Virus record (IMG/VR): IMGVR_UViG_2917886563_000007
From: a virus
Lineage: Duplodnaviria; Heunggongvirae; Uroviricota; Caudoviricetes
Reading direction: 5' to 3' (one strand)
DNA length: 64,000 nucleotides
Shown: positions 19,809-58,874 of the stretch, one piece after another
Layout of the letters: each line of letters begins with the position of its first letter
Position numbering within the stretch: position 1 is the stretch's first letter
Program-made: the position numbers and the translations under genes
The notes under the pieces: model-generated
Told to the model about the DNA's origin: nothing
Seen by the model: the letters and a program-made list of their open reading frames with translations, nothing else
Databases searched by the model: none

Positions 19809-19904
19809 GGTTGACGATAACTAATATCTGGCGCTATATTCTGTGCGTTGCCGCAAAATCGGCACACGGGATTGGCGTCCCGGATAAGGTAATCGCGACT
19901 ACTA

Positions 19905-19928
19905 CACGCCGCGAGCGTGTTTTTTATT
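19905..19928 (+). terminator. Rho-independent terminator downstream of ren
   Basis: cacgc-cgcga-gcgtg hairpin followed by ttttttatt. Confidence 0.55.
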
Positions 19929-37864: not shown

Positions 37865-38278
37865 ATGTTCCTGAAAACCGAATCATTTGAATATAACGGC
37901 GTGACCGTCACGCTTTCTGAACTGTCAGCCCTGCAGCGTATTGAGCATCTTGCCCTGATGAAACAGCAGGCAGAATCCGACAGTAACCGGAAGTTTACTG
38001 TGGAAGACGTCATCAGAACCGGCGCTTTTGTGGTGGCGATGTCTCTGTGGCATAACCATCCGAAGAAGACGCAGATGCCGTCCATGAATGAAGCCGTTAA
38101 ACAGATTGAGCAGGAAGTGCTTACCACCTGGCCCACAGAGGCAATTTCTCATGCTGAAAACGTGGTGTACCGGCTGTCCGGTATGTATGAGTTTGTGGTG
38201 AATAATGCCCCTGAACAGGCAGAGGACGCCGGGCCTGCAGAGCCTGTTTCTGCGGGAAAGTGTTCGACGGTGAGCTGA
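37865..38278 (+). CDS. G: Tail assembly chaperone G
   Basis: 137 aa MFLKTESFEYNGVTVTLSELSALQRIEHLALMKQQAES as lambda G. Confidence 0.9.
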   Translation: MFLKTESFEYNGVTVTLSELSALQRIEHLALMKQQAESDSNRKFTVEDVIRTGAFVVAMSLWHNHPKKTQMPSMNEAVKQIEQEVLTTWPTEAISHAENVVYRLSGMYEFVVNNAPEQAEDAGPAEPVSAGKCSTVS

Positions 38279-38694: not shown

Positions 38695-41248
38695 ACCGGT
38701 AGGCGATCTGGTCGTTGATTTAAGTCTGGATGCGGCCAGATTTGACGAGCAGATGGCCAGAGTCAGGCGTCATTTTTCCGGTACGGAAACTGATGCGAAA
38801 AAAACAGCGGCAGTCGTTGAACAGTCAATGAACCGGCAGGCGCTGGCTGCACAGAAAGCGGGGATTTCCGTCGGGCAGTATAAAGCCGCCATGCGTATGC
38901 TGCCTGCGCAGTTCACCGACGTGGCCACGCAGCTTGCAGGCGGGCAAAGTCCGTGGCTGATCCTGCTGCAACAGGGTGGTCAGGTGAAGGACTCCTTCGG
39001 CGGGATGATCCCCATGTTCAGGGGGCTTGCCGGTGCGATCACCCTGCCGATGGTCGGGGCCACCTCGCTGGCGGTGGTGACCGGTGCGCTGGCGTATGCC
39101 TGGTATCAGGGCAACTCAACCCTGTCCGATTTCAACAAAACGCTGGTCCTTTCCGGCAATCAGTCGGGTCTGACGGCAGATCGTATGCTGGTCCTGTCCA
39201 GAGCAGGGCAGGCGGCAGGGCTGACGTTTAACCAGACCAGCGAGTCACTCAGCGCACTGGTTAAGGCGGGGGTAAGCGGTGAGGCTCAGATTGCGTCCAT
39301 CAGCCAGAGTGTGGCGCGTTTCTCCTCTGCATCCGGCGTGGAGGTGGACAAGGTCGCTGAAGCCTTCGGGAAGCTGACCACAGACCCGACGTCAGGGCTG
39401 ACAGCGATGGCGCGCCAGTTCCATAACGTGACGGCGGAGCAGATTGCGTATGTTGCTCAGTTGCAGCGTTCCGGCGATGAAGCCGGGGCATTGCAGGCGG
39501 CGAACGAGGCCGCAACGAAAGGGTTTGATGACCAGACCCGACGCCTGAAAGAGAACATGGGCACGCTGGAAACCTGGGCAGACAGGACAGCACGGGCATT
39601 CAAATCCATGTGGGATGCGGTGCTGGATATTGGTCGTCCTGATACCGCTCAGGAGATGCTGATTAAGGCAGAGGCTGCGTTTAAGAAAGCGGACGACATC
39701 TGGAATCTGCGCAAGGATGATTATTTTGTTAACGATGAAGCGCGGGCGCGTTACTGGGATGATCGTGAAAAGGCCCGTCTTGCGCTTGAAGCCGCCCGAA
39801 AGAAGGCTGAACAGCAGAGTCAACAGGACAAAAATGCGCAGCAGCAGAGCGATACCGAAGCGTCACGGCTGAAATATACCGAAGAGGCGCAGAAGGCTTA
39901 CGAACGGCTGCAGACGCCGCTGGAGAAATATACCGCCCGTCAGGAAGAACTGAACAAGGCACTGAAAGACGGGAAAATCCTGCAGGCAGATTACAACACG
40001 CTGATGGCGGCGGCGAAAAAGGATTATGAAGCGACGCTGAAAAAGCCGAAACAGTCCGGCGTGAAGGTGTCTGCGGGCGATCGTCAGGAAGACAATGCTC
40101 ATGCTGCCCTGCTGACGCTTCAGGCAGAACTCCGGACACTGGAGAAGCATGCCGGAGCGAATGAGAAAATCAGCCAGCAGCGCCGGGATTTGTGGAAGGC
40201 AGAAAGTCAGTTCGCGGTACTGGAGGAGGCAGCACAACGTCGCCAGCTGTCCGCACAGGAGAAATCCCTGCTGGCGCATAAAGACGAGACGCTGGAGTAC
40301 AAACGCCAGCTGGCTGCACTTGGCGATAAGGTCACGTATCAGGAGCACCTGAATGCGCTGGCGCAGCAGGCGGATAAATTCGCACAGCAACAACGGGCAA
40401 AACGGGCAGCCATTGAGGCGAAAAACCGGGGGCTGACTGACCGGCAGGCAGCGCGGGACGCCACGGAACAGCGCCTGAAGGAACAGTATGGCGATAATCC
40501 GCTGGCGCTGAATAGCGTCATGTCAGAGCAGAGAAAGACCTGGGCGGCTGAAGACCAGCTTCGTGGAAGCTGGATGGCAGGCCTGAAGTCCGGCTGGAGC
40601 GAGTGGAAAGAGAGCGCCACGGACAGTATGTCGCAGGTTAAAAGTGCTGCCACGCAGACCTTTGATGGTATTGCGCAGAATATGGCGGCGATGCTGACCG
40701 GCAGTGAGCAGAACTGGCGCAGCTTCACCCGTTCCGTGCTGTCCATGATGACAGAAATTCTGCTTAAGCAGGCAATGGTGGGGATTGTCGGGAGTATCGG
40801 CAGCGCCATTGGCGGGGCTGTTGGTGGCGGCGCATCAGCATCAGGCGGTACAGCCATTCAGGCCGCTGCGGCGAAATTCCATTTTGCGACCGGGGGATTT
40901 ACGGGAACCGGCGGCAAATATGAGCCAGCGGGGATTGTTCACCGTGGTGAATTTGTCTTCACGAAGGAGGCAACCAGCCGGATTGGCGTGGGGAATCTCT
41001 ACCGGCTGATGCGCGGCTATGCCACCGGTGGTTATGTCGGTACACCGGGCAGCCTGGCGGACAGCCGGTCGCAGGCGTCCGGGAAGTTTGAGCAGAATAA
41101 CCATGTGGTGATTAATAACGACGGCACGAACGGTCAGATAGGGCCACAGGCGCTGAAGGCTGTTTATGACGTAGCCCGTAAGGCGGCAATGGATGTCGTG
41201 ACCGGGCAGATGCGTGATGGTGGTCTGTTCTCCGGAGGTGGGCGATGA
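38687..41248 (+). CDS. H: Tail tape measure protein H
   Basis: 853 aa, same length and position as lambda gpH. Confidence 0.95.
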   Translation: MAEPVGDLVVDLSLDAARFDEQMARVRRHFSGTETDAKKTAAVVEQSMNRQALAAQKAGISVGQYKAAMRMLPAQFTDVATQLAGGQSPWLILLQQGGQVKDSFGGMIPMFRGLAGAITLPMVGATSLAVVTGALAYAWYQGNSTLSDFNKTLVLSGNQSGLTADRMLVLSRAGQAAGLTFNQTSESLSALVKAGVSGEAQIASISQSVARFSSASGVEVDKVAEAFGKLTTDPTSGLTAMARQFHNVTAEQIAYVAQLQRSGDEAGALQAANEAATKGFDDQTRRLKENMGTLETWADRTARAFKSMWDAVLDIGRPDTAQEMLIKAEAAFKKADDIWNLRKDDYFVNDEARARYWDDREKARLALEAARKKAEQQSQQDKNAQQQSDTEASRLKYTEEAQKAYERLQTPLEKYTARQEELNKALKDGKILQADYNTLMAAAKKDYEATLKKPKQSGVKVSAGDRQEDNAHAALLTLQAELRTLEKHAGANEKISQQRRDLWKAESQFAVLEEAAQRRQLSAQEKSLLAHKDETLEYKRQLAALGDKVTYQEHLNALAQQADKFAQQQRAKRAAIEAKNRGLTDRQAARDATEQRLKEQYGDNPLALNSVMSEQRKTWAAEDQLRGSWMAGLKSGWSEWKESATDSMSQVKSAATQTFDGIAQNMAAMLTGSEQNWRSFTRSVLSMMTEILLKQAMVGIVGSIGSAIGGAVGGGASASGGTAIQAAAAKFHFATGGFTGTGGKYEPAGIVHRGEFVFTKEATSRIGVGNLYRLMRGYATGGYVGTPGSLADSRSQASGKFEQNNHVVINNDGTNGQIGPQALKAVYDVARKAAMDVVTGQMRDGGLFSGGGR

Positions 41249-41574
41249 AAACCTTCCGCTGGAAAGTGAAACCGGGTATGGATGTGGCTTCGGCTCCTTC
41301 CGTCAGGGAGGTGCGCTTTGGTGATGGTTACTCCCAGCGCGCGCCTGCCGGGCTGAATGCCAACCTGAAAACGTACAACGTGACGATTTCTGTTCCCCGT
41401 TGGGAGGCCACGGCGCTGGAATCGTTTCTGGCAGAGCACGGAGGCTGGAAAGCCTTTCTGTGGACGCCGCCTTATGACTGGCGGCAGATAAAGGTGACCT
41501 GCGCAAAATGGACGTCGCGGGTCAGTATGCTGCGTGTTGAGTTCAGCGCAGAGTTTAAGCAGGTGGTGAACTGA
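41245..41574 (+). CDS. M: Tail tip protein M
   Basis: 109 aa in the lambda M position. Confidence 0.9.
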   Translation: MKTFRWKVKPGMDVASAPSVREVRFGDGYSQRAPAGLNANLKTYNVTISVPRWEATALESFLAEHGGWKAFLWTPPYDWRQIKVTCAKWTSRVSMLRVEFSAEFKQVVN

Positions 41575-42272
41575 TGCAGGATATCCGGCAGGAAACACTG
41601 AATGAATGCACCCGTGCGGAGCAGTCGGCCAGCGTGGTGCTCTGGGAGATCGATCTGACAGAGGTCGGTGGAGAACGTTATTTTTTCTGTAATGAGCAGA
41701 ACGAAAAAGGTGAGCCGGTCACCTGGCAGGGGCGGCAGTATCAGGCGTATCCCATTCAGGGGAGCGGATTTGAGATGAACGGCAAAGGAGCCAGTGCCAG
41801 ACCAACGCTGAAAGTATCTAATCTGCACGGTATGGTCACCGGGATGGCGGAAGATCTGCAGAGTCTGGTCGGCGGAACGGTGGTCCGGCGTAAGGTTTAC
41901 GCCCGTTTTCTGGATTCGGTGAACTTCGTCAACGGAAACAGTGACGCCGATCCGGAGCAGGAGGTGATCAGCCGCTGGCGCATCGAACAGTGCAGCGAAC
42001 TGAGCGCGGTCAGTGCCTCTTTTGTACTGTCCACACCGACGGAAACGGACGGCGCTGTTTTTCCGGGGCGCATCATGCTGGCCAACACCTGCACCTGGAG
42101 CTATCGCGGTGATGAGTGCGGTTATAACGGTCCGGCTGTCGCGGATGAATATGACCAGCCGACGTCCGATATCACGAAGGATAAATGCAGCAAATGCCTG
42201 AGTGGCTGTAAGTTTCGCAATAATGTCGGCAACTTTGGCGGCTTCCTTTCCATTAACAAACTTTCGCAGTAA
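41574..42272 (+). CDS. L: Tail tip protein L
   Basis: 232 aa in the lambda L position. Confidence 0.9.
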   Translation: MQDIRQETLNECTRAEQSASVVLWEIDLTEVGGERYFFCNEQNEKGEPVTWQGRQYQAYPIQGSGFEMNGKGASARPTLKVSNLHGMVTGMAEDLQSLVGGTVVRRKVYARFLDSVNFVNGNSDADPEQEVISRWRIEQCSELSAVSASFVLSTPTETDGAVFPGRIMLANTCTWSYRGDECGYNGPAVADEYDQPTSDITKDKCSKCLSGCKFRNNVGNFGGFLSINKLSQ

Positions 42273-42277
42273 ATCCC

Positions 42278-43021
42278 ATGACAGAGACAGAATCAGCGAT
42301 TCTGGCGCACGCCCGACGATGTGCGCCAGCGGAGTCGTGCGGCTTCGTAGTGAGAACGCCGGAGGGGGAAAGATATTTTCCCTGCGTGAATATCTCCGGT
42401 GAGCCGGAGGATTATTTCCGGATGTCGCCGGAGGACTGGCTGCGGGCAGAAATGCAGGGTGAGATTGTGGCGCTGGTGCACAGCCATCCCGGTGGTCTGC
42501 CCTGGCTGAGTGAGGCCGACCGGCGGCTGCAGGTGCAGAGTGATTTGCCGTGGTGGCTGGTCTGCCGGGGGGCGATTCACAAGTTCCGCTGTGTGCCGCA
42601 TCTTACCGGGCGGCGCTTTGAGCACAGGGTGACGGACTGTTACACGCTGTTCCGGGACGCTTACCATCTGGCGGGGATTGAGATGCCGGATTTTACTCGC
42701 GAGGATGACTGGTGGCGTAACGGCCAGAATCTCTATCTGGATAATCTGGAGGCCACAGGGCTGTATCAGGTGCCGTTGCCAGCGGCGCAGCCGGGCGATG
42801 TGCTGCTGTGCTGTTTTGGTTCATCGGTGCCGAATCATGCCGCCATTTACTGTGGTGACGGCGAGCTGCTGCACCATATTCCTGAACAACTGAGCAAACG
42901 AGAGAGGTACACCGACAAATGGCAGCGACGCACACACTCCCTCTGGCGTCACCGGGCATGGCACGCATCTGCCTTTACGGGGATTTGCAACGATTTGGCC
43001 GCCGCATCGACCTTCGTGTGA
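42278..43021 (+). CDS. K: Tail tip assembly protein K (JAB/MPN + NlpC/P60-like)
   Basis: MTETESAILAHARRCAPAESCGFVV... with JAMM motif HSHPGGLPWLSEAD as lambda K; 3' end overlaps I. Confidence 0.9.
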   Translation: MTETESAILAHARRCAPAESCGFVVRTPEGERYFPCVNISGEPEDYFRMSPEDWLRAEMQGEIVALVHSHPGGLPWLSEADRRLQVQSDLPWWLVCRGAIHKFRCVPHLTGRRFEHRVTDCYTLFRDAYHLAGIEMPDFTREDDWWRNGQNLYLDNLEATGLYQVPLPAAQPGDVLLCCFGSSVPNHAAIYCGDGELLHHIPEQLSKRERYTDKWQRRTHSLWRHRAWHASAFTGICNDLAAASTFV

Positions 43022-43590
43022 AAACAGGGGCCGAAGCCATCCGGGCGCTGGCCATGCAGATCCCGGCGTTTCGTCAGAAACTGAGCGACGGCTGGTATCA
43101 GGTACGGATTGCCGGGCGGGATGTCAGCACGTCCGGATTAACGGCGCAGTTACATGAGGCTCTGCCTGACGGCGCTGTGATTCATATTGTTCCCAGAGTC
43201 GCAGGGGCCAAGTCAGGTGGCGTATTCCAGATTGTCCTGGGGGCAGCCGCCATTGCCGGATCATTCTTTACCGCCGGAGCCACCCTTGCAGCATGGGGGG
43301 CTGCCATTGGTGCCGGTGGTATGACCGGCATTCTGTTTTCTCTCGGTGCCAGTATGGTGCTCGGCGGTGTGGCTCAGATGCTGGCACCGAAAGCCAGAAC
43401 TTCCCGCATACAGACAACGGATAACGGTAAGCAGAACACCTATTTCTCCTCACTGGATAACATGGTTGCCCAGGGCAATGTTATGCCTGTTCTGTATGGT
43501 GAAATGCGCGTGGGGTCACGGGTGGTATCTCAGGAGATCAGCACGGCAGACGAAGGGGACGGTGGTCAGGTTGTGGTGATTGGTCGCTGA
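42919..43590 (+). CDS. I: Tail tip assembly protein I
   Basis: 223 aa MAATHTLPLASPGMARICLYGDLQRFGRRIDLRV as lambda I. Confidence 0.9.
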   Translation: MAATHTLPLASPGMARICLYGDLQRFGRRIDLRVKTGAEAIRALAMQIPAFRQKLSDGWYQVRIAGRDVSTSGLTAQLHEALPDGAVIHIVPRVAGAKSGGVFQIVLGAAAIAGSFFTAGATLAAWGAAIGAGGMTGILFSLGASMVLGGVAQMLAPKARTSRIQTTDNGKQNTYFSSLDNMVAQGNVMPVLYGEMRVGSRVVSQEISTADEGDGGQVVVIGR

Positions 43591-43650
43591 TGCAAAATGT
43601 TTTATGTGAAACCGCCTCCGGGCGGTTTTGTCGTTTATGGAGCATGACGA

Positions 43651-46600
43651 ATGGGTAAAGGCAGCAGTAAGGGGCATACCCCGCGCGAAGCGAAGGACAA
43701 CCTGAAATCCACGCAGTTGCTGAGTGTGATCGATGCTATCAGCGAAGGGCCGATTGAAGGTCCGGTGGATGGATTAAAAAGCGTGCTGCTGAACAGTACA
43801 CCGGTGCTGGACAGTGAGGGGAATACCAACATCTCCGGTGTCACGGTGGTGTTCCGGGCAGGTGAGCAGGAGCAGACACCGCCGGAGGGATTTGAATCCT
43901 CCGGTTCCGAGACGGTACTGGGTACGGAAGTGAAATACGACACGCCGATCACCCGGACTATCACGTCTGCAAATATCGACCGTCTGCGCTTTACCTTCGG
44001 TGTGCAGGCACTGGTGGAAACCACCTCAAAGGGTGACAGGAATCCGTCGGAAGTCCGCCTGCTGGTTCAGATACAACGTAACGGTGGCTGGGTGACAGAA
44101 AAAGACATCACCATTAAGGGCAAAACCACGTCGCAGTATCTGGCCTCAGTGGTGGTGGATAACCTGCCGCCGCGCCCGTTTAATATCCGGATGCGCAGGA
44201 TGACGCCGGACAGCACCACAGACCAGCTGCAGAACAAAACACTCTGGTCGTCATACACCGAAATCATCGATGTGAAACAGTGCTACCCGAACACGGCACT
44301 GGTTGGCGTACAGGTGGACTCGGAGCAGTTCGGCAGCCAGCAGGTGAGCCGTAATTATCATCTTCGCGGGCGCATTCTGCAGGTGCCGTCGAACTATAAC
44401 CCGCAGACGCGACAATACAGCGGTATCTGGGACGGAACGTTTAAGCCAGCATACAGCAACAACATGGCATGGTGTCTGTGGGATATGCTGACCCACCCGC
44501 GCTACGGCATGGGGAAACGTCTTGGTGCGGCGGATGTGGATAAATGGGCGCTGTATGTCATCGGCCAGTACTGCGACCAGTCAGTGCCGGACGGCTTTGG
44601 CGGCACGGAGCCGCGCATCACCTGTAATGCGTACCTGACCACACAGCGCAAGGCGTGGGATGTGCTCAGTGATTTCTGCTCGGCGATGCGCTGTATGCCG
44701 GTATGGAACGGGCAGACGCTGACGTTCGTGCAGGACCGACCATCAGATAAGGTGTGGACCTATAACCGCAGTAATGTGGTGATGCCGGATGATGGCGCGC
44801 CGTTCCGCTACAGCTTCAGCGCCCTGAAGGACCGCCATAATGCCGTTGAGGTGAACTGGATTGACCCGGATAACGGCTGGGAGACGGCGACAGAGCTTGT
44901 GGAGGACACGCAGGCCATTGCCCGTTACGGTCGTAACGTCACGAAGATGGATGCCTTTGGCTGTACCAGCCGGGGGCAGGCGCACCGCGCCGGGCTGTGG
45001 CTGATTAAAACGGAACTGCTGGAAACGCAGACCGTGGATTTCAGCGTGGGCGCAGAAGGCCTTCGCCATGTGCCGGGCGATGTTATTGAAATCTGCGATG
45101 ATGACTACGCGGGGATCAGCATCGGCGGGCGCGTGCTGGCGGTGAACAGCCAGACGCGGACACTGACGCTCGACCGTGAAATCACGCTGCCATCCTCCGG
45201 CACCACGCTGATAAGCCTGGTTGACGGTGAGGGTAATCCGGTCAGTGTGGAGGTCCAGTCCGTCACCGACGGCGTGAAAGTGCAAGTGAGTCGGGTTCCT
45301 GACGGGATAGCTGAATACAGCGTATGGGGGCTGAAGCTGCCGACGCTGCGCCAGCGCCTGTTCCGCTGCGTGAGTATCCGTGAGAATGACGACGGCACGT
45401 ATGCCATCACCGCTGTGCAGCATGTGCCGGAGAAAGAGGCCATCGTGGATAACGGGGCGCACTTTGACGGCGACCAGAGCGGCACGGTGAATGGTGTCAC
45501 GCCGCCAGCGGTGCAGCATCTGACCGCAGAAGTCACCGCAGACAGCGGGGAATACCAGGTGCTGGCGCGCTGGGATACGCCGAAGGTGGTGAAGGGGGTG
45601 AGCTTTATGCTTCGCCTGACCGTGGCAGCGGATGACGGCAGTGAGCGGCTGGTCAGCACGGCCCGGACGACAGAAACCACATACCGCTTCACGCAACTGG
45701 CGCTGGGAAACTACAGGCTGACAGTCCGGGCGGCAAATGCCTGGGGGCAGCAGGGCGATCCGGCGTCGGTATCGTTCCGGATTGCCGCACCGGCAGCGCC
45801 GTCGCGGATTGAGCTGACGCCGGGCTATTTTCAGATAACCGCCACGCCGCATCTTGCCGTTTATGACCCGACGGTACAGTTTGAATTCTGGTTCTCGGAA
45901 AAGCGGATTGCGGATATCAGGCAGGTTGAAACCACAGCCCACTATCTTGGCACGGCGCTGTACTGGATAGCCGCCAGTATCAATATCAAACCGGGCCATG
46001 ATTATTATTTTTATATCCGCAGTGTGAACACCGTTGGCAAATCGGCATTCGTGGAGGCTGTCGGTCGGGCGAGCGATGATGCGGAAGGTTACCTGGATTT
46101 TTTCAAAGGCCAGATAACCGAATCCCATCTCGGCAAGGAGCTGCTGGAAAAAGTCGAGCTGACGGAGGATAACGCCAGCAAACTGGAGGAGTTCTCGAAA
46201 GAGTGGAAAGACGCCAACGATAAATGGAATGCCATGTGGGGCGTCAAAATTGAGCAGACCGAAGACGGCAAACATTATGTCGCGGGGCTTGGCCTCAGCA
46301 TGGAGGATACAGAGGAAGGCAAACTGAGCCAGTTCCTGGTTGCCGCTAACCGTATCGCGTTTATTGACCCGGCAAACGGGAATGAAACGCCGATGTTTGT
46401 GGCGCAGGGCAACCAGATATTCATGAACGAAGTGTTCCTGAAGTATCTGACGGCTCCCACCATTACCAGCGGCGGCAATCCGCCGGTATTTTCCCTGACA
46501 CCGGACGGGCGGCTGACGGCGAAAAATGCCGATATCAGCGGTAACGTGAATGCGAACTCCGGGACGCTCAACAACGTCACGATAAATGAGAACTGTACGA

Positions 46601-47064
46601 TTAAGGGAATGCTCGAGGCTACTCAGGTCAGAGGTGACTTCGTTAAAGCTGTATCTAAGCCATTCCCGAAAAAAACTGGCTCGTGGGGCGATACGGAAAC
46701 ACCAGGCGGGACGGTTACAGTCACCATTTACGATGATCATAACTTTGATCGCCAGATTATTATTCCGCCCATTATTTTTAATGGTGTGGCGTATGACGAT
46801 CCGGGGAGCGGTAATAACCCGGGAGGTACGCGATACACGGGTTATGGTTTTGAAGTTCGCAAAAACGGCGTATTAATCGCATCCAGAGAAACTAAAGGAG
46901 CCATTCCCGGTAGTTACAGTGCGGTTATTGATATGCCGAGTGGTGGTGGTAGTGTCACTCTGGAGTTTAAGATTTTCCAGAAAGGCAATCAGGGCGCAGG
47001 TAACATCACAGACTGTACGGTGATTGTGACCAAAAAAGCTGCTTCCGGTATCAGTATCCGTTGA
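43651..47064 (+). CDS. J: Central tail fibre / host specificity protein J
   Basis: 1137 aa [54 protein letters not shown] as lambda J. Confidence 0.95.
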
Positions 47065-47124
47065 AATATTTATAACCCCAATACGGGCGCCAGAAATGGC
47101 GCCTTTTATATTTGTGGAGTGAGT

Positions 47125-49494
47125 ATGGCAGTACAGATTTCAGGTGTGCTGAAAGATGGTGCGGGAAAACCAATACAGAACTGCACTATTCAACTGAAGG
47201 CAAAGCGTAACAGCACCACGGTACTGGTGAACACGGTGGCCTCTGAAAATCCGGATGAAGCCGGGCGTTACAGCATGGATGTTGAGTATGGCCAGTACAG
47301 CGTTATCCTGCTGGTTGAAGGTTTTCCGCCTTCACATGCCGGAACCATTACCGTCTATGAAGGTTCCAGTCCGGGGACGCTGAATGATTTTCTCGGTGCC
47401 ATGACGGAAGATGATGTCATGCCGGAGGCATTGCGCCGTTTTGAGGCTATGGTGGAAGAAGCAGCACGTAACGCTGAAGCTGCCTCTCAGAGCGCAGCGG
47501 CGGCAAAGAAATCCGAAACTGCAGCGGCATCATCGAAGAACGCGGCGAAAACCTCAGAAACGAATGCAGCTAACAGCGCACAGGCGGCAGCGGCCTCACA
47601 GACTGCATCGGCAAACTCCGCGACAGCAGCCAAAAAATCAGAAACCAACGCGAAAAATAGCGAAACAGCCGCAAAGACGAGCGAAACCAACGCAAAGTCC
47701 AGCCAGACGGCAGCGAAAACCAGCGAAACGAATGCCAAAGCCAGTGAAACTGCGGCGAAAAACAGCCAGGCTGCAGCAGCTGAAAGTGAGAGCGCGGCAG
47801 CCGGTTCTGCGACTTCAGCAGCCGGATCAGCAACTGCTGCGGTTAACAGTCAGAAAGCAGCGAAGACGAGTGAAACTAACGCAAAGTCCAGCCAGACGGC
47901 AGCGAAGACCAGCGAAACAAATGCCAAAGCCAGCGAAACTGCGGCGAAAAACAGTCAGGATGCAGCGGCCCAAAGCGAGAGTGCCGCAGCTGGTTCTGCA
48001 AGTGCGGCGGCTTCTTCTGCCACTGCATCAGCCAACAGTCAAAAAGCTGCAAAAACCAGTGAAACCAACGCAAAGGCGAGCGAGACTGCGGCGGCTAACT
48101 CGGCGAAAGCATCCGCTGCAAGCCAGACAGCGGCTAAAGCAAGTGAAGATGCAGCCAGGGAGTACGCAAGCCAGGCAGCTGAGCCGTATAAACAAGTTTT
48201 GCAGCCGTTGCCTGATGTGTGGATACCGTTTAATGACTCGATGGATATGATCACCGGATTTGGCCCGGGATATAAAAAAATAACAGTGCGCGATGATGTG
48301 GTCACTATACCATCCGACAAAATTGTCCCGTTTTCCCGCGCGAGTTCCGCGACCTATATCAATAAGTCCGGCGCTCTTACCATTGCAGAAATTAATGAGC
48401 CACGTTTTGAAAAAGAAGGGCTGTTAATTGAAGGGCAGAGAACTAACTATCTAAAAAATTCTAATACACCGGAATTGTGGTACTACCACAGTTTACTGGC
48501 GAAAGAGTATGGGGTTGATAATTACGGTTTTAATTATGCAACCGTCACCGTGACAGACAGTCTTGTAGGCACAACCAGTAGTTATCAGATTCATAGTGTA
48601 ACAGGAGAGAACAGGTTTTCTCTGTCCATCGGTGAAACCTGCACTTTTTCTGCCCGCTTTCGTGGAGTTAATTCACGTTGTCGCGTCCATATATCTCTTG
48701 TTATTGGCGAAAATGTTAAAACATCCGTTGATGTATGTCTGGAGCCAGATACAGGTGAGGTTAAGGCGTACGGTAATAAGGCGCTGGTGACATTCAGAAC
48801 GGAAAAACAGGGGGACTGGTGTTACTTTGAAACAACATATACCGCCGCAGAGAATATTGACGAAGTGGTATGCGGTTTTTTTATAACCAATCCTGAAGAT
48901 GGTGGTTTTTCTTCTGATTCGTCATTAACAATGACTACGCCGCAAATTGAAAAAGGGCCATGCGCTTCATCGTTTATTATTTCCGGAAACACACCAACCA
49001 CGCGCGCCAGTGATATGGTTATTTTTTCAACCAGAAATAACATAAGTTCTGTCCCTTTAAGCTGTCTTGTTGAAATACATAAAAATTGGGACTCTACGCC
49101 AAATCAGGCCCCACGAATTTTAACCACTATTGGCGTGGCGACTAATGATGAACAACTGGTATTTGCTTTCAGGAAGCCTACAAGTCCGGATGTAGAGCCT
49201 TTACCTTATGTTCAGTTTGGAGTGAGATCTGCATATCTTAGTCCATCTGTGAAGGCCGGGCGCAAAATGATTGCTGGTTTTGTCTGTAATAGCTCGACTG
49301 AATTTCGTTGCTGTTGTAATGGTTACCTGTCACCTGTTCAGACTTCGTCATGGAAGAATACCGGAGCTGCACATGAAATACGTATTGGGGGAACTTCTGC
49401 TGGCGGAGACCGCCACTTGTTTGGTCACGTTCGTAACCTGAGAATATGGCATAAAGAATTAACTGATGCGCAAATGGGGGAGAGTATTAAATGA
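47125..49494 (+). CDS. stf: Side tail fibre Stf (lambda-like N-terminus, divergent C-terminal region)
   Basis: MAVQISGVLKDGAGKPIQNCTIQLKAKRNSTTVLVNTVASENPDEAGRYSMDVEYGQYSVILLVEGFPPSHAGTITVYE as lambda Stf; Ala/Ser/Thr-rich repeats; ATG at 47125. Confidence 0.9.
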   Translation: MAVQISGVLKDGAGKPIQNCTIQLKAKRNSTTVLVNTVASENPDEAGRYSMDVEYGQYSVILLVEGFPPSHAGTITVYEGSSPGTLNDFLGAMTEDDVMPEALRRFEAMVEEAARNAEAASQSAAAAKKSETAAASSKNAAKTSETNAANSAQAAAASQTASANSATAAKKSETNAKNSETAAKTSETNAKSSQTAAKTSETNAKASETAAKNSQAAAAESESAAAGSATSAAGSATAAVNSQKAAKTSETNAKSSQTAAKTSETNAKASETAAKNSQDAAAQSESAAAGSASAAASSATASANSQKAAKTSETNAKASETAAANSAKASAASQTAAKASEDAAREYASQAAEPYKQVLQPLPDVWIPFNDSMDMITGFGPGYKKITVRDDVVTIPSDKIVPFSRASSATYINKSGALTIAEINEPRFEKEGLLIEGQRTNYLKNSNTPELWYYHSLLAKEYGVDNYGFNYATVTVTDSLVGTTSSYQIHSVTGENRFSLSIGETCTFSARFRGVNSRCRVHISLVIGENVKTSVDVCLEPDTGEVKAYGNKALVTFRTEKQGDWCYFETTYTAAENIDEVVCGFFITNPEDGGFSSDSSLTMTTPQIEKGPCASSFIISGNTPTTRASDMVIFSTRNNISSVPLSCLVEIHKNWDSTPNQAPRILTTIGVATNDEQLVFAFRKPTSPDVEPLPYVQFGVRSAYLSPSVKAGRKMIAGFVCNSSTEFRCCCNGYLSPVQTSSWKNTGAAHEIRIGGTSAGGDRHLFGHVRNLRIWHKELTDAQMGESIK
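47692..48069. repeat. Two tandem copies of a 189-bp (63-codon) unit inside stf
   Basis: gcaaagtccagccagacggcagcgaa(a/g)accagcgaaac... occurs at 47692 and again at 47881, in frame. Confidence 0.8.
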
Positions 49495-49772
49495 AAGATT
49501 TAACACTCAAATTTGCAGACAGGGCCGACTTTTCGGCCTTCATGGATAGCACGGGCTATTATGATGACGAGTCGATGCAGGATGATATTCTTATTGACGT
49601 GATAGGTAACGTGTACAAAGAAACCGGAGAACTTACTGAAGATGGCGAGCCGGTATGTGTTAAGGAAGACGGATATTTTGTAAACATGCGCATCATTAAT
49701 GATGTGAAAACACCGTCAATATTCGATGAATACGTGGTTGCTGTTGAGCATCAACTTCGTGGCTGGATGTGA
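49491..49772 (+). CDS. Hypothetical small protein between the two tail fibre genes (possible fibre assembly factor)
   Basis: 93-aa acidic ORF translationally coupled to stf. Confidence 0.4.
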   Translation: MKDLTLKFADRADFSAFMDSTGYYDDESMQDDILIDVIGNVYKETGELTEDGEPVCVKEDGYFVNMRIINDVKTPSIFDEYVVAVEHQLRGWM

Positions 49773-49781
49773 GGAAGAAAA

Positions 49782-50822
49782 ATGGCTACATCGACAGTAA
49801 TTCCTGATGACATCAAAACGCTAAAATCCGATGTTAGTAAACTAAAAACTGATCAAGGAAGCTATGCAACAAAATCATATGTAGACAATAAAACAACATG
49901 GAATAGTTATTGTAATGTAATCTATGATCAAAAGTCATTGCCCACAACTGGAACTATATTTAGCGGTAAGATGCACTTGTCAAATAAGACAGGAGAAACC
50001 GAAAACGCTTATAGTGAGATGTACACCAGAAAAAATATTGACGGCACTAAAGATACAATGACAAGGATTGTCACACACAATGGAACAAAAGGTATCTTCT
50101 GGGATTTTAGCGATCTTTACGGTGGGACATTGATTTTCCCAGGAAATGAAGGTTACTTGAAAATGGGTAAGTGCCTCATGTCTTATGGGAATCGTGTTGA
50201 TAACGCCATGATTAAATTTGATTACACAGACACATTACAAATCAAATATGCTAATCATGGGTCAACCATGACATTAAATACACAGGGAACCGCTCACGCT
50301 GGCGTAACAACTCGAATATGGGGCAATTCTAGCCGCCCGGTTGTTTATGAAGTTGGCGTAGATGAGGCTCTGTATATGTTCTACGCACAGAAAACTACCA
50401 GCAATACCTACGAATTAACGGTTAACGGCGCGTGTAATGCAAGTGCATTTAATCAAGGCTCTGACCGGGATCTGAAAGACAATATTCAGGTGATCGATAA
50501 TGCAACCGACCGCATTCGTAAAATGAACGGCTATACATACACGCTTAAAGAAAACGGTATGCCTTACGCTGGTGTTATTGCACAAGAAGCCCTGGAAGCC
50601 ATCCCCGAAGCCGTAGGGTCTATGATGAAATATCCAGACGGTGGGAGTGGATTAGATGGAGAAGAAGGTGAACGGTATTACACTGTAGATTATTCTGGTG
50701 TTACTGGCTTGCTTGTTCAGGTAGCCAGAGAGTCAGACGACAGAATAACAGCACTGGAAGAAGAAAACGCAGAATTAAGACAAAGATTATCTGCAATTGA
50801 GGCGACGCTTGTGTCTAAATAA
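49782..50822 (+). CDS. Second tail fibre/receptor-binding protein with C-terminal intramolecular chaperone (peptidase S74-like) domain
   Basis: C-terminal SDRDLKDNIQVIDNATDRIRKMNGYTYTLKENGMPYAGVIAQEALEAIPEAV plus terminal coiled coil fits the auto-cleaving chaperone domain of tail fibres and endosialidases. Confidence 0.75.
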   Translation: MATSTVIPDDIKTLKSDVSKLKTDQGSYATKSYVDNKTTWNSYCNVIYDQKSLPTTGTIFSGKMHLSNKTGETENAYSEMYTRKNIDGTKDTMTRIVTHNGTKGIFWDFSDLYGGTLIFPGNEGYLKMGKCLMSYGNRVDNAMIKFDYTDTLQIKYANHGSTMTLNTQGTAHAGVTTRIWGNSSRPVVYEVGVDEALYMFYAQKTTSNTYELTVNGACNASAFNQGSDRDLKDNIQVIDNATDRIRKMNGYTYTLKENGMPYAGVIAQEALEAIPEAVGSMMKYPDGGSGLDGEEGERYYTVDYSGVTGLLVQVARESDDRITALEEENAELRQRLSAIEATLVSK

Positions 50823-50828
50823 TATTAA

Positions 50829-50850
50829 GGGGCCGAGCGCCCCGTTTTAT
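50829..50850 (+). terminator. Rho-independent terminator after the tail fibre gene
   Basis: ggggc-cgagc-gcccc hairpin followed by gttttatt. Confidence 0.6.
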
Positions 50851-50864
50851 TGGGTAGGATGAAA

Positions 50865-51158
50865 ATGGATATAACACCTTTCCTTCATGCACTTTGTGCT
50901 GTGGCTGCGCAGGTACTGATTGGCCTTTTTACCGGAAACTGGGCTTACGGAGCTATAGCCGGTTGTACGTTCTTCATTGCGCGTGAACACACCCAGGCAG
51001 AATATCGCTGGATTGAAATGTTCGGGCACGGCAAGCGTATGAATATGCCGTGGTGGGGCGGTTTTGATCCACGCGCGTGGGATGTAGCAAGCCTGATGGA
51101 TTTTTCTGTGCCGGTGGTGGCGTGTCTGCTGGTCTGGGTATTTATCCGTTCAACATAA
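50865..51158 (+). CDS. Small predicted inner-membrane protein (cargo)
   Basis: About 97 aa from MKMDITPF (AGGA RBS 5 nt upstream); two hydrophobic segments. Confidence 0.5.
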   Translation: MDITPFLHALCAVAAQVLIGLFTGNWAYGAIAGCTFFIAREHTQAEYRWIEMFGHGKRMNMPWWGGFDPRAWDVASLMDFSVPVVACLLVWVFIRST

Positions 51159-51454
51159 AAAGTCGCAGCAACTTGTCATGGCGGAATACTGCGGCTGGCT
51201 GGTGAGCTATCGATAGTGCGAGTATGGAATGATTTCCAGCCATTATAGATTTTACGTATTTTTTTGCATGAGAGGATTTGCACCACCTCCCACCGACCAT
51301 CTATGACTATACGCCACCATTTCTAGGGCTGCTATGTGCCAGAAGCGGACATTATGACAGCCAGGAAGCCCTTATCTGAACGAAAAAAATAATGTCGTTG
51401 GGATGGTTTACTTTACAATGTCAGTTTTAAACAGCCTACAAAACAGGTGATCAC

Positions 51455-52357
51455 GTGCATGCCAACATGATTGAATACCTAAATATTTTCATACAGGTTG
51501 TTGAGCAGGGTAGCTTCACTAAAGCTGCTGATGTACTTCAGATCCATCGCCCCACCGTGAGCAAAGCAATACAGCAGATAGAGCATGATCTGGGTGTAAA
51601 ACTCATTTATCGCACAACCCGAAAGCTGAGCGTTACTGCTGAAGGGGATGAGTTCTATCATCATGCCAGGCATGTCCTGGCCGAAGTTAATGACATGATG
51701 GCCAGTTTTTCACCGACTCTTCCACCGCGAGGACGCCTGAGACTTGATGTGCCCCTGGCGCTGGCGCATTCCATATTGATCCCTAATCTTAGGCATTTTC
51801 AGACACTGTATCCAGGTATTGAAGTTGTGCTGGTTTCTTCGGATAAAAAAACTGATTTGATCACGGAAGGCGTAGATTGCCTTATCCGCCTGGGTGCGCT
51901 TCAGGATTCTAGTTTTATATCCAGACGTCTTGGTGACATCCGGATGGTTACCTGTGCAGCCCCGTCTTACCTGCAGCAGCATGAGCGGCCAGAAACACTT
52001 GCGGATCTGGATAAACATCGGGCAATTAACTTTTTTAGCGACCACAGTCGTGACGTCATGGAATGGAAGTTTATCGAAAACGGGAGCATTGTTTCGCTAC
52101 GTCCTGCGGGCAGCCTGCTGGTTGATAATTCCGATATTCTGCTTTCCTGTGCTCTGGCTGGTCTGGGCATTATCCAAGCTACCTATGATGCCGTTGCTCC
52201 CCATATTGCTTCCGGCGCTCTTGAAGAGATTCTGCCGCAATACCCATCGGTGTCAAAGCCCGTGTCAGTGATGTATCCCGACAGGCGCTACCTTTCTCCA
52301 AAAGTGCGCGTCTTTATCGACTGGTTCAGTGATGTTCTGGCCACGCAGATCCGCTGA
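51455..52357 (+). CDS. LysR-family transcriptional regulator (cargo)
   Basis: N-terminal HTH IFIQVVEQGSFTKAADVLQIHRPTVSKAIQQIEHDLGVKLIYRTTRKLSVTAEG; start may be ATG 51467 rather than GTG 51455. Confidence 0.85.
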   Translation: MHANMIEYLNIFIQVVEQGSFTKAADVLQIHRPTVSKAIQQIEHDLGVKLIYRTTRKLSVTAEGDEFYHHARHVLAEVNDMMASFSPTLPPRGRLRLDVPLALAHSILIPNLRHFQTLYPGIEVVLVSSDKKTDLITEGVDCLIRLGALQDSSFISRRLGDIRMVTCAAPSYLQQHERPETLADLDKHRAINFFSDHSRDVMEWKFIENGSIVSLRPAGSLLVDNSDILLSCALAGLGIIQATYDAVAPHIASGALEEILPQYPSVSKPVSVMYPDRRYLSPKVRVFIDWFSDVLATQIR

Positions 52358-52506
52358 AGCAGGCGGATTGTTAATGGATAATTAATACTGAAGTTCCCTC
52401 TCAGCTATTTCTGGTGTGTTTGTAACAACGTAGATTGTTCACAAATGATTCGGGCATCCCTTCGGCATTATTCTGAAGGAGTGCCTTTAACTGAAGAGAG
52501 CTGAAT

Positions 52507-53499
52507 ATGTCTAAAGTTATTACCTTTAACCGTACCGGAGGCCCGGAAGTGCTGGAATTTGTTGATGTACAGGTGCCTGCGCCGACAGCGGGTGAAGTGC
52601 AGATCCGCGTACATGCGATAGGTATCAACCGTGCAGAAATCATGTACCGCAACGGCCAGTATGTTATTGAGCCGGAATTTCCGGCACGTCTTGGTTATGA
52701 AGCGGCTGGCGTTGTGCAGGCCGTAGGTGAGAATGTTGATGAGTTTACCATTGGAGATCTGGTCAGCGTTATCCCTTCATTTATGTTTAATGAATACGGT
52801 ATGTACGGTGAAGTGGTCAATGCACCTGTGCATGCTATCGTGAAGCATCCTGAAAACCTTTCTTTTGAGGAAGCCGCTGCAAGCTGGATGATGTATGTCA
52901 CCGCTTATGGTGCGCTGGTTGAATATGGCAATCTTCAGGCTGGTCAGAATGTTGTGATCCGCGCAGCATCAAGCAGCGTAGGTCTGGCTGCCATACAGAT
53001 AGCTAACATGCTGGGTGCAAACCCAATTGCACTCACTCGGACCTCTGAAAAAAGTGAAATGCTACTGAAAGCTGGCGCAGCTGCCGTCATTGCTACTGCA
53101 GAGCTGGATATGGTTGCTGAAATCAATCGAACAACAGATGGCGTAGGTGCCCATATTGTTTTTGATCCCGTCGGCGGGCCGGACGTGGCAAAACTGACGC
53201 AGGTGATGGCATCACAGGGCATGTTTTTCCAGTATGGCGCGCTCGATAGCCGTGACATGCTTGTGCCTGTATTTAATATTCTCGGTAAGCATCTCACTCT
53301 GCGTGGATATGAGCTGTTTGAAATCACGACTGATTCTGAAAAAATGGCGCGCGCAAAATCCTTCATAACAGAAGGCTTACGAGCTGGCAAACTGAAACCG
53401 GTCATCGATAAAACGTTCCCGTTCGAAGAGATTGCAGACGCCCAGCGCTATATGGAGGCCAATGGCCAGGTAGGCAAAATAGTCGTGACCGTTGAGTAA
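52507..53499 (+). CDS. Medium-chain dehydrogenase/reductase family quinone oxidoreductase-like protein (cargo)
   Basis: 330 aa; GroES-like N-terminal domain and nucleotide-binding motif AASSSVGLAAIQIA typical of NADPH:quinone reductase / zinc-type ADH superfamily. Confidence 0.8.
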   Translation: MSKVITFNRTGGPEVLEFVDVQVPAPTAGEVQIRVHAIGINRAEIMYRNGQYVIEPEFPARLGYEAAGVVQAVGENVDEFTIGDLVSVIPSFMFNEYGMYGEVVNAPVHAIVKHPENLSFEEAAASWMMYVTAYGALVEYGNLQAGQNVVIRAASSSVGLAAIQIANMLGANPIALTRTSEKSEMLLKAGAAAVIATAELDMVAEINRTTDGVGAHIVFDPVGGPDVAKLTQVMASQGMFFQYGALDSRDMLVPVFNILGKHLTLRGYELFEITTDSEKMARAKSFITEGLRAGKLKPVIDKTFPFEEIADAQRYMEANGQVGKIVVTVE

Positions 53500-53830
53500 T
53501 CCTTACCACAGCATTTTATAAATGAGCCTGGTGAAGCCTGGATATTATCCAGGCTTCGATGCAATGGCTCCGGCAGGTACTGCCTTCGATTTCCACGACT
53601 TGAAAATTAAATGTCCTTTTCTCGCTTAAAGGGGGACCTTCAGATCCAAGAGGCTGTCCGCTTGGTGCCAGGAGCGGACGTTACTAACGTGATGATGAGA
53701 TCATCTACGAGAAACAAGTCATATGGGATATATTTCCAATAGAATATGAAAGATTAAACCCTGACTGGAGTTCATCCATTATTTATTACAAGTGAGATTT
53801 TATACAAGAAAAAGGATAAATATTAATTTT

Positions 53831-54274
53831 TCAGAAACCTCTAAATTCATGTAATTTTGAAGATAGCTCTTCATTCTTTTTTATGAAGTCTAATAAATAC
53901 TCTTCAGTTATTATTATTTGATTTCCATCCTTATACTTAGTTGCTAACATCTGGTTATCATTATCTGATGAGATACCTTCCGGAGCGGTGATGCGAAAAC
54001 TATGCATTATTCTATTGCGGATAATGACAAGCTCTTCAAAAAGAGTAGCAATAGTATCGTCTGATTTTTTTGAAATGGTTTCTTTGATAGGGATTTTAAG
54101 CTGGCCAGAAGTTTTATCTATTAACGCATACCAGTTGTAACTTTCATCATCATCTTCCCTTAAAATATTTTCAATGATAAAACCATTGTTGGAGTTGAAA
54201 ACACAAACGGCAGTGCCAACAAGTTCTCTATATTTTTTTGACGGTAATGATTGGCGCGAAAAAACTTCATACAT
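53831..54274 (-). CDS. Hypothetical protein, attR-proximal AT-rich cluster (contains an Rx4H motif; HEPN-like?)
   Basis: 147-aa ORF with gaggg RBS; motif RNRIMH near the centre; AT-rich. Confidence 0.5.
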   Translation of the reverse strand: MYEVFSRQSLPSKKYRELVGTAVCVFNSNNGFIIENILREDDDESYNWYALIDKTSGQLKIPIKETISKKSDDTIATLFEELVIIRNRIMHSFRITAPEGISSDNDNQMLATKYKDGNQIIITEEYLLDFIKKNEELSSKLHEFRGF

Positions 54275-54439
54275 GATAATTTAACCCTCATGAAAGTAGG
54301 TGATAATATCAGAGTTGAACTCTGCTCCGGCAGTGGAGCGCAACCAAATTCGCAGCATTTTCAGTCCTATCCTAACTCTGCTCACTGTATGTCACAAGCG
54401 GAATTTAATAACATCAGGCTATCCCCTTAGCAGGACTGG

Positions 54440-54697
54440 TCACCAGTTATCTTTTGATAAATCAAGGGCTGCAGATTGAATCCATCGCTCATAGGCAGTT
54501 CCCAATTGCCCTATGCTTTGGATACCAGGGATATTCATTGTCAAAATAGCTTGATGGTTAACCTGTTTCGCCCCCCATAAATACCCATACTCTACGTACC
54601 CTCTGATTTTCAAAGCCCTACAAATTACTTCTTTTCTAAAAAAAGCATCAAGTTGAATGTTTTTTGTATAATTAAAGAGATGGTTCTCAGCATTCAT
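54440..54697 (-). CDS. Hypothetical protein; possibly the C-terminal part of a frameshifted gene continuous with 54687-55169
   Basis: 85-aa ORF whose ATG lies 11 nt inside the upstream ORF, just after an A7 (plus-strand T7) tract. Confidence 0.4.
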   Translation of the reverse strand: MNAENHLFNYTKNIQLDAFFRKEVICRALKIRGYVEYGYLWGAKQVNHQAILTMNIPGIQSIGQLGTAYERWIQSAALDLSKDNW

Positions 54698-55169
54698 CTC
54701 TATGAAGTCTTTTTTTATTTTGTATTACTGACAACACTTTCTCTTTATTTAACACTCTACCATAATACGAGGTTCCATCATTGCAGTGTGCGTATATCTC
54801 ATTGAAGTAAACGGATGCTCCTCGCCAATCAGCGAAGCTCAAGGACTCCCCGCTCAGGTGGTTATGATGCAATACAAAGTTAGGCCGATTACTGATTGAG
54901 TCCAGCAATGCTGAAGAGGGATTTGCTCGATTCTCTAGTTTTTCTGTACTGAATTCGAGTAGCGGACCTTTAGGGCAATGAAGTGAAGCAGAGTATTCCC
55001 AGCGTGCACACTCACCGGCTTCGACTAACAATAGTGCGGTTATTTGTTCTAAGTCAGTCATGTTTCTTAACATGCTTAGCTCCCATAGCTTATTGACTAA
55101 TGTATATCGGCAACACGACTCCACATCTTGAGATATCTCTTCATTTTTTGAATCCAGATGTGAGCACAA
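54687..55169 (-). CDS. Hypothetical protein with a divergent JAB/RadC-like HNH..S..D motif
   Basis: 160-aa ORF; motif LHHNHLSGESLSFAD with an upstream Glu (LLVEAGE); the match to JAMM/RadC is imperfect (one residue short). Confidence 0.4.
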   Translation of the reverse strand: MCSHLDSKNEEISQDVESCCRYTLVNKLWELSMLRNMTDLEQITALLLVEAGECARWEYSASLHCPKGPLLEFSTEKLENRANPSSALLDSISNRPNFVLHHNHLSGESLSFADWRGASVYFNEIYAHCNDGTSYYGRVLNKEKVLSVIQNKKRLHRDEC

Positions 55170-55508
55170 TCGTTTAGTTGCATCTTTATTACTTTTTTCA
55201 CACTAGGTATGTCAATTTATAACGAAATTTAAACTTCCGCTCTTCGCTCATAGCAGACATTCACTACAGTTATGGCAGAAAGGTATGCATGTTGGGTGTG
55301 GGGAAGTAGTGAAAGAAAAGAAGACTGCTGAGCCGTTTGTCGTCACGTTTATCTTCATTGGCTATGCGAGTCGTAATACAAGATGGGACAAAACTGAGAC
55401 ACATAAGGCCTCACAATGGCTTGCAAGGCTTTACATGTTTTGATGTGGTGGGACGTGTGAGCGCAGTGTTGATGGGGTAATGCTTTGAATTAGAATCGGA
55501 TTCTTATA

Positions 55509-55556
55509 ATTCGTAATGCGAAGGTCGTAGGTTCGACTCCTATTATCGGCACCATC
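55509..55556 (+). repeat. tRNA-Thr 3' fragment, second direct repeat (attR of lambdoid prophage)
   Basis: attcgtaatgcgaaggtcgtaggttcgactcctattatcggcaccatc repeats the 9834-9884 sequence; no tRNA 5' half upstream. Confidence 0.8.
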
Positions 55557-57656
55557 AAGAAAATCAATAACTTAGCTTAACTTCTCTAAGAAATTGTATC
55601 TTCTGTTATCACTTACAAACGCCTATACGTTGTTATGGGCTTTGGTAGTGTAACACGTATGGGCGAGTAGTTCCCAGGCTCAACCTCGTAACAAGTTCCT
55701 TTGAAGCTGGAAGACGTGCCACCGTCTCTAAACCTTCTACCAAAACTCTTAGCAAGATGTTCCACACCTGGCGCGGTGTCCAATGATGCTACACGTCGTG
55801 AGACGTTGCAGAGGATAAACAGGCTAAATGATGGGAAGAGTTTTAAGTGCAATAGTGGATTAAAGCCCACCTCTTCAAAACCTAACTTGATCGGGAAAGA
55901 ATCAAGCTCTAGCACGGTTTCGTCCACCGGAGTACAACGGGTGCCTGATAAGAGAAGAACTGCTAAGACTTCATAGCTTTTGTGAAAAAGCCCTTTTTAG
56001 TGGATACGCCTACGGCGCTTATTTTTTGGTATAACCATCAAAGGCGCTTTATGGCTCCTATTGTCTTGAAAATGTATCTTTACTTGTATTGTGTTTTATG
56101 CGTAGTCTCCCTGTGTAGTATGTAACTTGTTAATTTTCATATGAATACAGAGGCACACGATGAAAAACATTGCAGCTATAAAACGTAATAACCGCAAGAT
56201 TCACGCTCGTAAGTTCCTGTCTACGCCAGAAGGAAAAGCCTGGCTAGAGCGTAAACAGAGAGAGAACGAAGAAAGAAAACTCCTTAGTGAGTTGAAATGG
56301 CTTAGAGAGGATTTCTGAAAATCTCCAGAACGCAACAGGACGCATTCTAACGCTGTTTTCATTGCTTGGTATAGGAATGTACAGGTGATGTGTGTTTAAT
56401 GCGTCTGTGAGCTTGTTTTGTGCCTTATTTTGCATTTTCATAATGCAGAAGAGAACACGGAAAGCCTTAAAATTAATTATTGGGGTATTTAAGGCTATTT
56501 TCAGGGTATTTAAGGGTATTAAACTTGATTTAATTGATTAAAATATAAACAGATAGTTCTGTATCTTATTGATTTATAAGGTTGTTTTTAAATAAAGGTA
56601 AATAAAAAATAAATAGCCATAAATAGCTATAAATACATCTAAATACCTATATCCCTTCCCTTATGGCTAGATTGCGAGAAGTGCTTAACGCGATTTTCAG
56701 CGCCCCCCGATCTGGAAAATCCAGAATCCCCAAATATCAGCAAGGAATTTTCTTGCGTAATCAACATCGTTTTTACCTATTAAATCATTACACAGAAAGC
56801 CTTTCTGTAATGTCTCTCACTAAACTTTCACTAAACACGAGAATGATCGGTTTTATGTCGGATCAGATGCTAGAAACAGCACCACGTCTCACAAGGGCTG
56901 TAAGCGATGAAACCAGTGTTTATGCGGGTGCAGGTCAAAATATAGGCCAAAATCCATTTAACATAATAAACGTAATATGCACTAAGGAACACATAGAACG
57001 CCTTGAATTGATGTATCAGGGGAAAAGTGATGGATTTTTTACGTAGGAGCACGAGAGGGCTTATGTTGACTTTTGTATGCTATGAAATATAATTAAAGGT
57101 TTTTTTTGTTTTTATCGTGTGATGTAGTGGATTACACAGGGGAATAGATTAAATGGTGTTCTGTTTATACAGGTTTATTTGTTAGATCAACAATTTGGCA
57201 TTTCTAAACAGATGTTTGAACGTTGCCAAATGTCTTGACAACACAAGAAAAGGGCTTGCTATGCCACGCATTACACGAAATAAGGCTGTAAAAACAAAAT
57301 AAATTTTAAAATTTGCACAAACGAGAAAACTCGTTCAGAAACAAGCAGAACAATTTTTAGCCAACAATTTCTGATGGTGTGCTGTAAGCCGCATCACACA
57401 AGGTTTTGCGAAAGTGATGTAAAAGTGAAGAAAGTAAGAATTGCACTTTTAAGCTGCTTTTCATTGAATTTTTTAGTATGGAATTACACAGGGAATAGAG
57501 AGCATTATTCTATGATTTACACAGGGAATATAGGGGGATTATGGCACACACATAGAAAGGCATTACACAGGGTGAGTGCTATGTGATGATTGGTAGTAAC
57601 GGTAGGTCACTGTGAGCTACCCCCTATCAAGTCTAACAGGGGTTTATATGTAGTGG

Positions 57657-58874
<1,218 letters not shown>

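Follow-up and report, generated by a model that had tools for sequence, protein, structure and literature searches.

The window, by which we mean the whole 64,000-nt stretch of DNA analysed, carries on its minus strand two apparent open reading frames (ORFs) that meet at a run of adenines (Table 1). The run is exactly 7 nt long, and the ATG of the 85-aa ORF lies 11 nt before the stop codon of the upstream ORF, giving an 11-nt overlap downstream of the run. This arrangement had been described in an earlier sequence-only reading of the locus and was confirmed on the minus strand, where the junction reads ...TCA GTA ATA CAA AAT AAA AAA AGA CTT CAT AGA GAT GAA TGC TGA. The frame of the 85-aa ORF is open upstream through the run, and a recount of the frames showed that a 1-nt change does fuse the two. 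Deletion of one A produces a single ORF that is 242 aa long when read from the TTG, slightly less than the ~246 aa originally proposed for the fusion, or 210 aa when read from the probable ATG; addition of two As also joins the frames. The fused in silico translation contains ...VIQNKKDFIEMNAENHL... across the junction. Judged from the sequence, the true start of the gene is likely the ATG at 55073-55071 with its upstream GGGAG ribosome-binding site, an assignment supported by the equivalent MLR/MFR being the start in most homologues. The upstream ORF corresponds to the N-terminal part of this gene followed by seven out-of-frame residues (RLHRDEC), and holds E26 and an H70-x-H72-x6-S79-x2-D82 motif. 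The 85-aa ORF corresponds to the C-terminal 87 residues of the gene, begins at a non-conserved internal Met and carries an invariant FFRKEVI...YVEY..WG block.

Table 1. Features of the locus and of the programmed frameshift sites elsewhere in the window.
Feature	Position	Strand	Remarks
Apparent upstream ORF	54687..55169	-	160 aa from TTG, or 128 aa from ATG 55073
Apparent downstream ORF	54440..54697	-	85 aa; annotated TGB62984.1
Homopolymer run	54710..54716	-	A7 on coding strand, T7 on plus strand; apparent frameshift site
Single gene for 210-aa JAMM/MPN-fold protein	54440..55073	-	intact if the run is A6
GGGAG ribosome-binding site	55080..55084	-	6 nt upstream of probable true start ATG
HEPN-like gene	53831..54274	-	147 aa; downstream of JAB-like gene; NCBI label 'selenium binding protein'
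Mobile two-gene cassette (1.44 kb)	53815..55258	-	upstream region (~185 nt), JAB-like gene, 165-nt spacer, HEPN-like gene
IS3-family insertion sequence	57657-58830	-	
IS3-family programmed -1 site (A AAA AAG)	58571-58565	-	between orfA (HTH) and orfB (rve)
Lambda-type G/GT programmed -1 site (G GGA AAG)	38254-38260	+	overlap of Phage_TAC_2 and Phage_tail_T ORFs (tail assembly chaperone)

Two ORFs at a homopolymer do not by themselves exceed what is expected by chance. The window contains 25 A7/T7 runs, and in a mechanical test a 1-nt indel extended an ORF by at least 60 codons at 8 of its 142 homopolymer runs. The case for a single gene was therefore built on homologues and not on the pattern. 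A search with the fused translation against 5.8 billion proteins recovered 22 homologue clusters, all of them single proteins aligned across the junction, which gives a clear yes to the question raised by the earlier reading of whether homologues are single ORFs. Cluster sizes were 189-245 aa (203-245 aa for complete proteins) in addition to one 155-aa fragment, and query coverage was at least 97% in 18 of the 22, the remainder being shorter or partial predictions. When 1.84 billion cluster representatives were searched with a profile, just 80 relatives emerged. Those of full length align to profile positions ~2-207, across position ~121, and nearly all of them are single proteins spanning the junction; in the more distant ones the match, to ~6-170, is a C-terminal domain within a larger protein and again crosses position 121. 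Residues F144, R146, K147, R152, Y162, W166 and G167 are invariant in the C-terminal half, and the start Met of the 85-aa ORF is not conserved among the homologues.

An AlphaFold2 model built on the homologue alignment predicted one compact fold (pLDDT 89.5, pTM 0.87), in which the junction residues K121/D122 lie within a helix spanning 110-136, and a strand at 160-165 and the conserved C-terminal residues are part of the same fold. Together, these results show that both ORFs belong to one gene, divided in this sequence by a 1-nt change within the A run, as had been suggested. The same reading had also allowed for two translationally coupled genes, and had named homologues with two overlapping genes and the same A7 tract as a refutation of the split gene; the homologues are instead single in-frame ORFs. 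With no conserved internal Met, continuous homologues and one helix running across the junction, two translationally coupled genes are therefore excluded.

A related explanation is programmed recoding, either by a +1 shift at AAA-AGA or by transcriptional slippage on the A7, or else a pair of translationally coupled genes with separate products by design. In the zero frame the rare Arg codon AGA follows AAA AAA, where a +1 slip would yield the full protein, and there is an 11-nt overlap between the downstream ATG and the upstream stop region. Against this, the two-ORF layout occurs in no homologue other than one in Dickeya with a 7-nt deletion, and alleles with identical flanks are in frame at A6. 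The internal Met lacks a usable Shine-Dalgarno sequence before it in addition to being unconserved, a -1 slip would reach a stop after 3 codons, and the junction falls inside one helix of a single domain. Furthermore, the genuine programmed sites of the window, in the IS3-family element and in the tail assembly chaperone genes (Table 1), look different and are conserved. We consider recoding or coupling so improbable here that it hardly enters the choice between readings.

In fold comparisons the 210-aa protein was found to have an MPN fold, the figures for the listed proteins being PfJAMM1 8.8, Rpn11 8.7, BRCC36 8.0, AfJAMM 7.5, BilC 7.2, Cap3 6.9 and RadC 5.4, with the related deaminase fold next. 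H70, H72 and D82 are invariant in the family alignment, and conservation reaches at least 90% at S79 and E26. From H-x-H to S this JAMM-like motif has a spacer of 6 residues, compared with 7 in the JAMM E...HxHx7Sx2D, and the family also has an invariant AHCxDxTxYxG block and a C-terminal (helical) extension of ~100 residues. Neither the fused protein nor the neighbouring gene product gave anything above threshold when scanned with Pfam, NCBIfam, PHROGs and PADLOC. For the curated JAB profiles (PF01398, PF14464, PF04002) there was no Pfam match to the window protein at E<=1, and a profile search of PDB sequences returned a chance match only. The sole profile link was a weak RadC match of one distant relative (P0220, E 0.0087, below the cut-off). 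Foldseek searches against viral models recovered uncharacterised phage proteins, 'minor capsid' proteins and RadC/JAB/MPN proteins, and in the distant relatives (P0215-P0232) the JAB-like domain forms the C-terminal end of Phage_Mu_F minor head proteins and also of a phage portal protein. These MuF and portal fusions suggest virion-delivered effectors. On the basis of the fold comparisons, the JAMM-like motif, the Foldseek matches and the distant relatives, the 210-aa protein is regarded as a JAMM/MPN-fold, probably RadC-like, protein of mobile elements, a call made at the level of the fold and not of membership among catalytic JAMM proteins.

Downstream of the JAB-like gene lies a gene for a 147-aa HEPN-like protein. 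Its R86-N-R-x-x-H91 motif is invariant in 23 diverse homologues and agrees with the Rx4-6H motif of HEPN RNases, and the 'selenium binding protein' name looks like a misnomer. The HEPN-like family is found at 62-70% identity across Proteobacteria and Firmicutes, in more than 712 clusters and always as mobile-element cargo. The two genes form a mobile cassette that is 97.8-100% identical across unrelated genomic contexts and genera. Here it occupies the moron region of a lambdoid prophage, where it follows the tail fibres, a LysR regulator and a quinone oxidoreductase; elsewhere it is located in an integrase island and, in Dickeya, beside an OLD-TOPRIM/UvrD (Gabija-like) pair. A scan of genome contigs recovered cassette alleles at 5 loci only, megablast found no match to the cassette in plasmids or phages, and it was absent from all 5426 complete Escherichia coli genomes. 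More distant JAB-like homologues adjoin ArdC-like, SRAP and UmuDC genes, and a HEPN gene accompanies some of them but not others. Acinetobacter Tn7-like cargo and a Virgibacillus prophage carry the HEPN-like gene but no JAB-like gene. As each is also found apart from the other, pairing of the two genes is facultative, and the persistence of HEPN-only variants makes a toxin-antitoxin dependency unlikely. A search of the literature on RiboL-PSP and on combined JAB and HEPN systems found nothing relevant.

Several observations were made around these genes. In the Acinetobacter Tn7-like element (L010 1-4444, Logan SRR35213436), the HEPN-like homologue adjoins ThiF/BubE (Bub-type ubiquitin-like) genes and an unannotated 314-aa protein, all of them cargo of a TniQ/TniB/rve transposon. 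A relationship of this 314-aa upstream partner to the JAB-like protein was considered and rejected, the two being unrelated on testing; likewise, a 255-aa HEPN protein beside an Enterobacter homologue resembles the 147-aa protein at the level of the motif only. At the upstream end of the cassette, positions 55233-55600 comprise ~360 nt of non-coding DNA that is 91-97% identical to unannotated DNA in 5164 of the 5426 complete E. coli genomes (median 2 copies), where the copies adjoin variable island cargo. A permissive Rfam scan of 55150-57650 gave no match. Within the prophage, Rfam matches at 19849-20035 and 24600-24992 on the plus strand were to isrK Hfq-binding sRNA, C4 antisense RNA and a cspA-type thermoregulator 5'UTR.

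To assess the state of the A run, we compared the window with other assemblies. It is 100% identical to PDHX01000024.1 (GCA_004745245.1) over 23.4 kb, and among ~15 billion proteins the exact 85-aa ORF is present in a single contig only (PDHX, TGB62984.1, 338,232 nt). PDHX00000000 is an assembly of Escherichia cryptic clade II strain E4736, built from Ion Torrent single-end reads (35-400 nt, 100x) with MIRA, SPAdes and manual finishing (PMC6639607). A second contig, VATT01000034.1 (GCA_005781225.1, 90,876 nt), encodes the intact 210-aa protein under the name '[Escherichia sp. E4736]'. Where the window (PDHX01000024.1) has T7 at 54710 and GGCC at 45060, VATT01000034.1, compared over 17,888 nt (39782-57669), has T6 and GGGC. 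The Logan assembly SRR8835208 (21,888 nt, 33651-55538) likewise has T6 and GGGC, and Logan SRR6053163 (15,758 nt, 39781-55538) has T6 and GG-C. These two positions, both at homopolymer boundaries, are the sole differences from the window in each of the three comparisons.

The difference at 45060 is synonymous in gene J (43651-47064, plus strand) between the window and VATT or SRR8835208. In SRR6053163, which we infer to be the E4736 Ion Torrent read set, the GG-C is an undercall that splits gene J into 497 and 643 aa. It is a flow-space error signature at the other odd site of PDHX, and the base at 45060 in the window is probably another flow-space homopolymer miscall. At the run itself, A6 was found in every intact close allele recovered, which answers the proposed comparison of tract length in homologous loci. 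The six sources of these alleles, spread over at least four genera, comprise three further assemblies of this prophage (L006/L032, L007/L033, L030) and three loci elsewhere, namely a metagenome contig (L008), Citrobacter amalonaticus (L021) and Providencia (L022). The A6 translation (L006/L007) is 100% identical to the in silico fusion. The A7, one base longer than in all of these, was seen among close alleles in the PDHX assembly only, and pattern scans of metagenome and viral contigs revealed no tract-length variants.

Ion Torrent chemistry miscalls homopolymer length, and a residual homopolymer error in an assembly from this platform is commonplace. The A7 would then be a homopolymer-length miscall in the PDHX assembly of E4736, the true run would be A6, positions 54440-55073 would hold one intact 210-aa gene, and the organism would have no frameshift, switch or coupling. 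We favor this explanation, which was not among the three readings offered earlier, because of the platform and the A6 in the other E4736 assembly and in the read-set assemblies, and because the second PDHX-specific difference also lies at a homopolymer boundary. Judged from assemblies rather than reads, we place its probability at roughly 0.85, and we infer that A6 rather than A7 is the true state. Two circumstances would weaken the artefact reading: SRR8835208 may come from a sister strain covered by the same study, and PDHX and VATT may share one set of reads.

Few errors in PDHX were found within the compared span, which counts against an artefact. There was no further discrepancy among 30 A/T runs of at least 6 nt, the phage structural genes of the window are unbroken, and against E. 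coli relatives at 96-98% identity the window shows four 1-nt indels only, all intergenic. The idea of an assembly riddled with homopolymer errors was accordingly rejected, the flagged sites at 17786, 23047 and 26349 matching E. coli SF-468 without an indel. An error at A7 would thus be an isolated residual one and not pervasive noise.

The scarcity of other homopolymer discrepancies in PDHX is also a point for a genuine mutation, the main rival explanation. It would consist of a very recent A6-to-A7 replication slippage in the PDHX culture, or of a mixed A6/A7 population, and the JAB-like gene would thereby be a pseudogene of fresh origin in that lineage. Apart from the extra A, the cassette shows no change relative to intact alleles, as expected of a recent event. 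However, A6 is present in the second assembly of the same named strain and in two read-set assemblies, a real mutation between cultures of one strain within ~18 kb is improbable a priori, and the other PDHX difference lies at a homopolymer boundary where the Ion Torrent-like read set shows an undercall. The platform is moreover known for exactly this kind of error. The recent frameshift pseudogene that the sequence-only reading had listed first is thus conceivable but unlikely, with an Ion Torrent assembly set against A6 in the others.

Genuine disruptions of the same gene in Dickeya dadantii and in E. coli islands also speak for a real mutation. In D. dadantii JAIZFY010000018.1 (L009 3449-5043), a 7-nt deletion between AATA repeats, GTAATA[CAAAATA]AAAAAGAC, falls in the same A-rich spot and splits the gene, again leaving an annotated 85-aa ORF; the A-rich stretch is thus a real mutational hot spot elsewhere, a further argument against an artefact. 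In ~20 E. coli contigs with an integrase/DUF5906/resolvase island, a 422-nt internal deletion has removed residues 16-155 (deletion alleles L001/L002/L003/L005 3624-3832). The JAB-like gene is losable and the A-rich stretch is fragile. The HEPN-like gene is intact in both the Dickeya and the E. coli disruptions, and loss of the JAB-like gene is therefore tolerated or favored. That the A7 really exists in at least part of the E4736 population, and is thereby a third independent inactivation of the JAB-like gene with the HEPN-like gene kept, is in our view unlikely, a little more so than a recent slippage as such. If true, it would point to an undescribed two-gene mobile module of a JAMM-fold and a HEPN-like protein, with the JAB-like partner recurrently switched off by selection and the A-rich stretch as preferred target.

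Two independent lesions in one A-rich stretch, the A7 and the Dickeya deletion, and the presence of a coding homopolymer might also be taken to indicate a slipped-strand, phase-variable switch in which the A run toggles the JAB-like gene at high frequency. Established mononucleotide A/T contingency tracts are typically longer than 6-7 nt, which is the length here, and all intact close alleles have exactly A6. Conservation of the NKK codons ends with the closest clade, the window has many A7/T7 runs, and the Dickeya lesion is a deletion between repeats and not a change in tract length. The on/off switch suggested earlier is left without support by the short tract, the A6 of every intact close allele and the absence of the tract from distant homologues, and we regard it as highly improbable.

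With a homopolymer miscall as the preferred reading, the A7 has no importance as a frameshift and is best handled as an assembly error; the annotation of TGB62984.1 as a separate 85-aa 'hypothetical protein' should give way to the merged 210-aa gene, and the sequencing platform should be checked before homopolymer frameshifts in this window are read biologically. What the locus does contain is of modest interest: an unannotated JAMM/MPN-fold family of small size, with 80 representatives among 1.84 billion proteins, whose JAB-like/HEPN-like cassette occurs in prophages, islands and defence neighbourhoods, and for which the virion-protein fusions of the JAB-like domain suggest a role in conflicts between mobile elements and their hosts.

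Compared with JAMM/MPN+ proteins, such as the RadC-like JABs of phages and conjugative elements and the defence JABs of Cap3/BilC type, the 210-aa protein differs in its 6-residue spacer, the extra block, the C-terminal extension and the lack of a curated profile match; unlike Cap3/BilC-type systems, the cassette has no ubiquitin-like or CD-NTase partner gene. For the 147-aa protein the systems for comparison are HEPN-domain RNases, of RiboL-PSP type and the MNT-HEPN toxin HI0074. Programmed sites (IS3 orfA/orfB, lambda G/GT and the prfB +1 site) likewise combine overlapping frames with a slippery-looking A run. However, the two-frame layout of IS3 and lambda G/GT is conserved, whereas here the homologues are single in-frame ORFs, the shift would be +1 and there is no conserved stimulator. 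Contingency loci among the surface and restriction-modification genes of Neisseria, Haemophilus and Campylobacter also have a coding mononucleotide run that decides the frame, but the tract here is short, invariant at A6 and not family-wide, with no evidence of reversible variation. The closest likeness is to the homopolymer artefacts of flow-based sequencing (Ion Torrent, 454), in which, as here, a single extra base appears in a run of at least 6 nt and is absent from other assemblies of the same strain, although PDHX, with its 100x coverage, has few such errors over the ~20 kb that are comparable.
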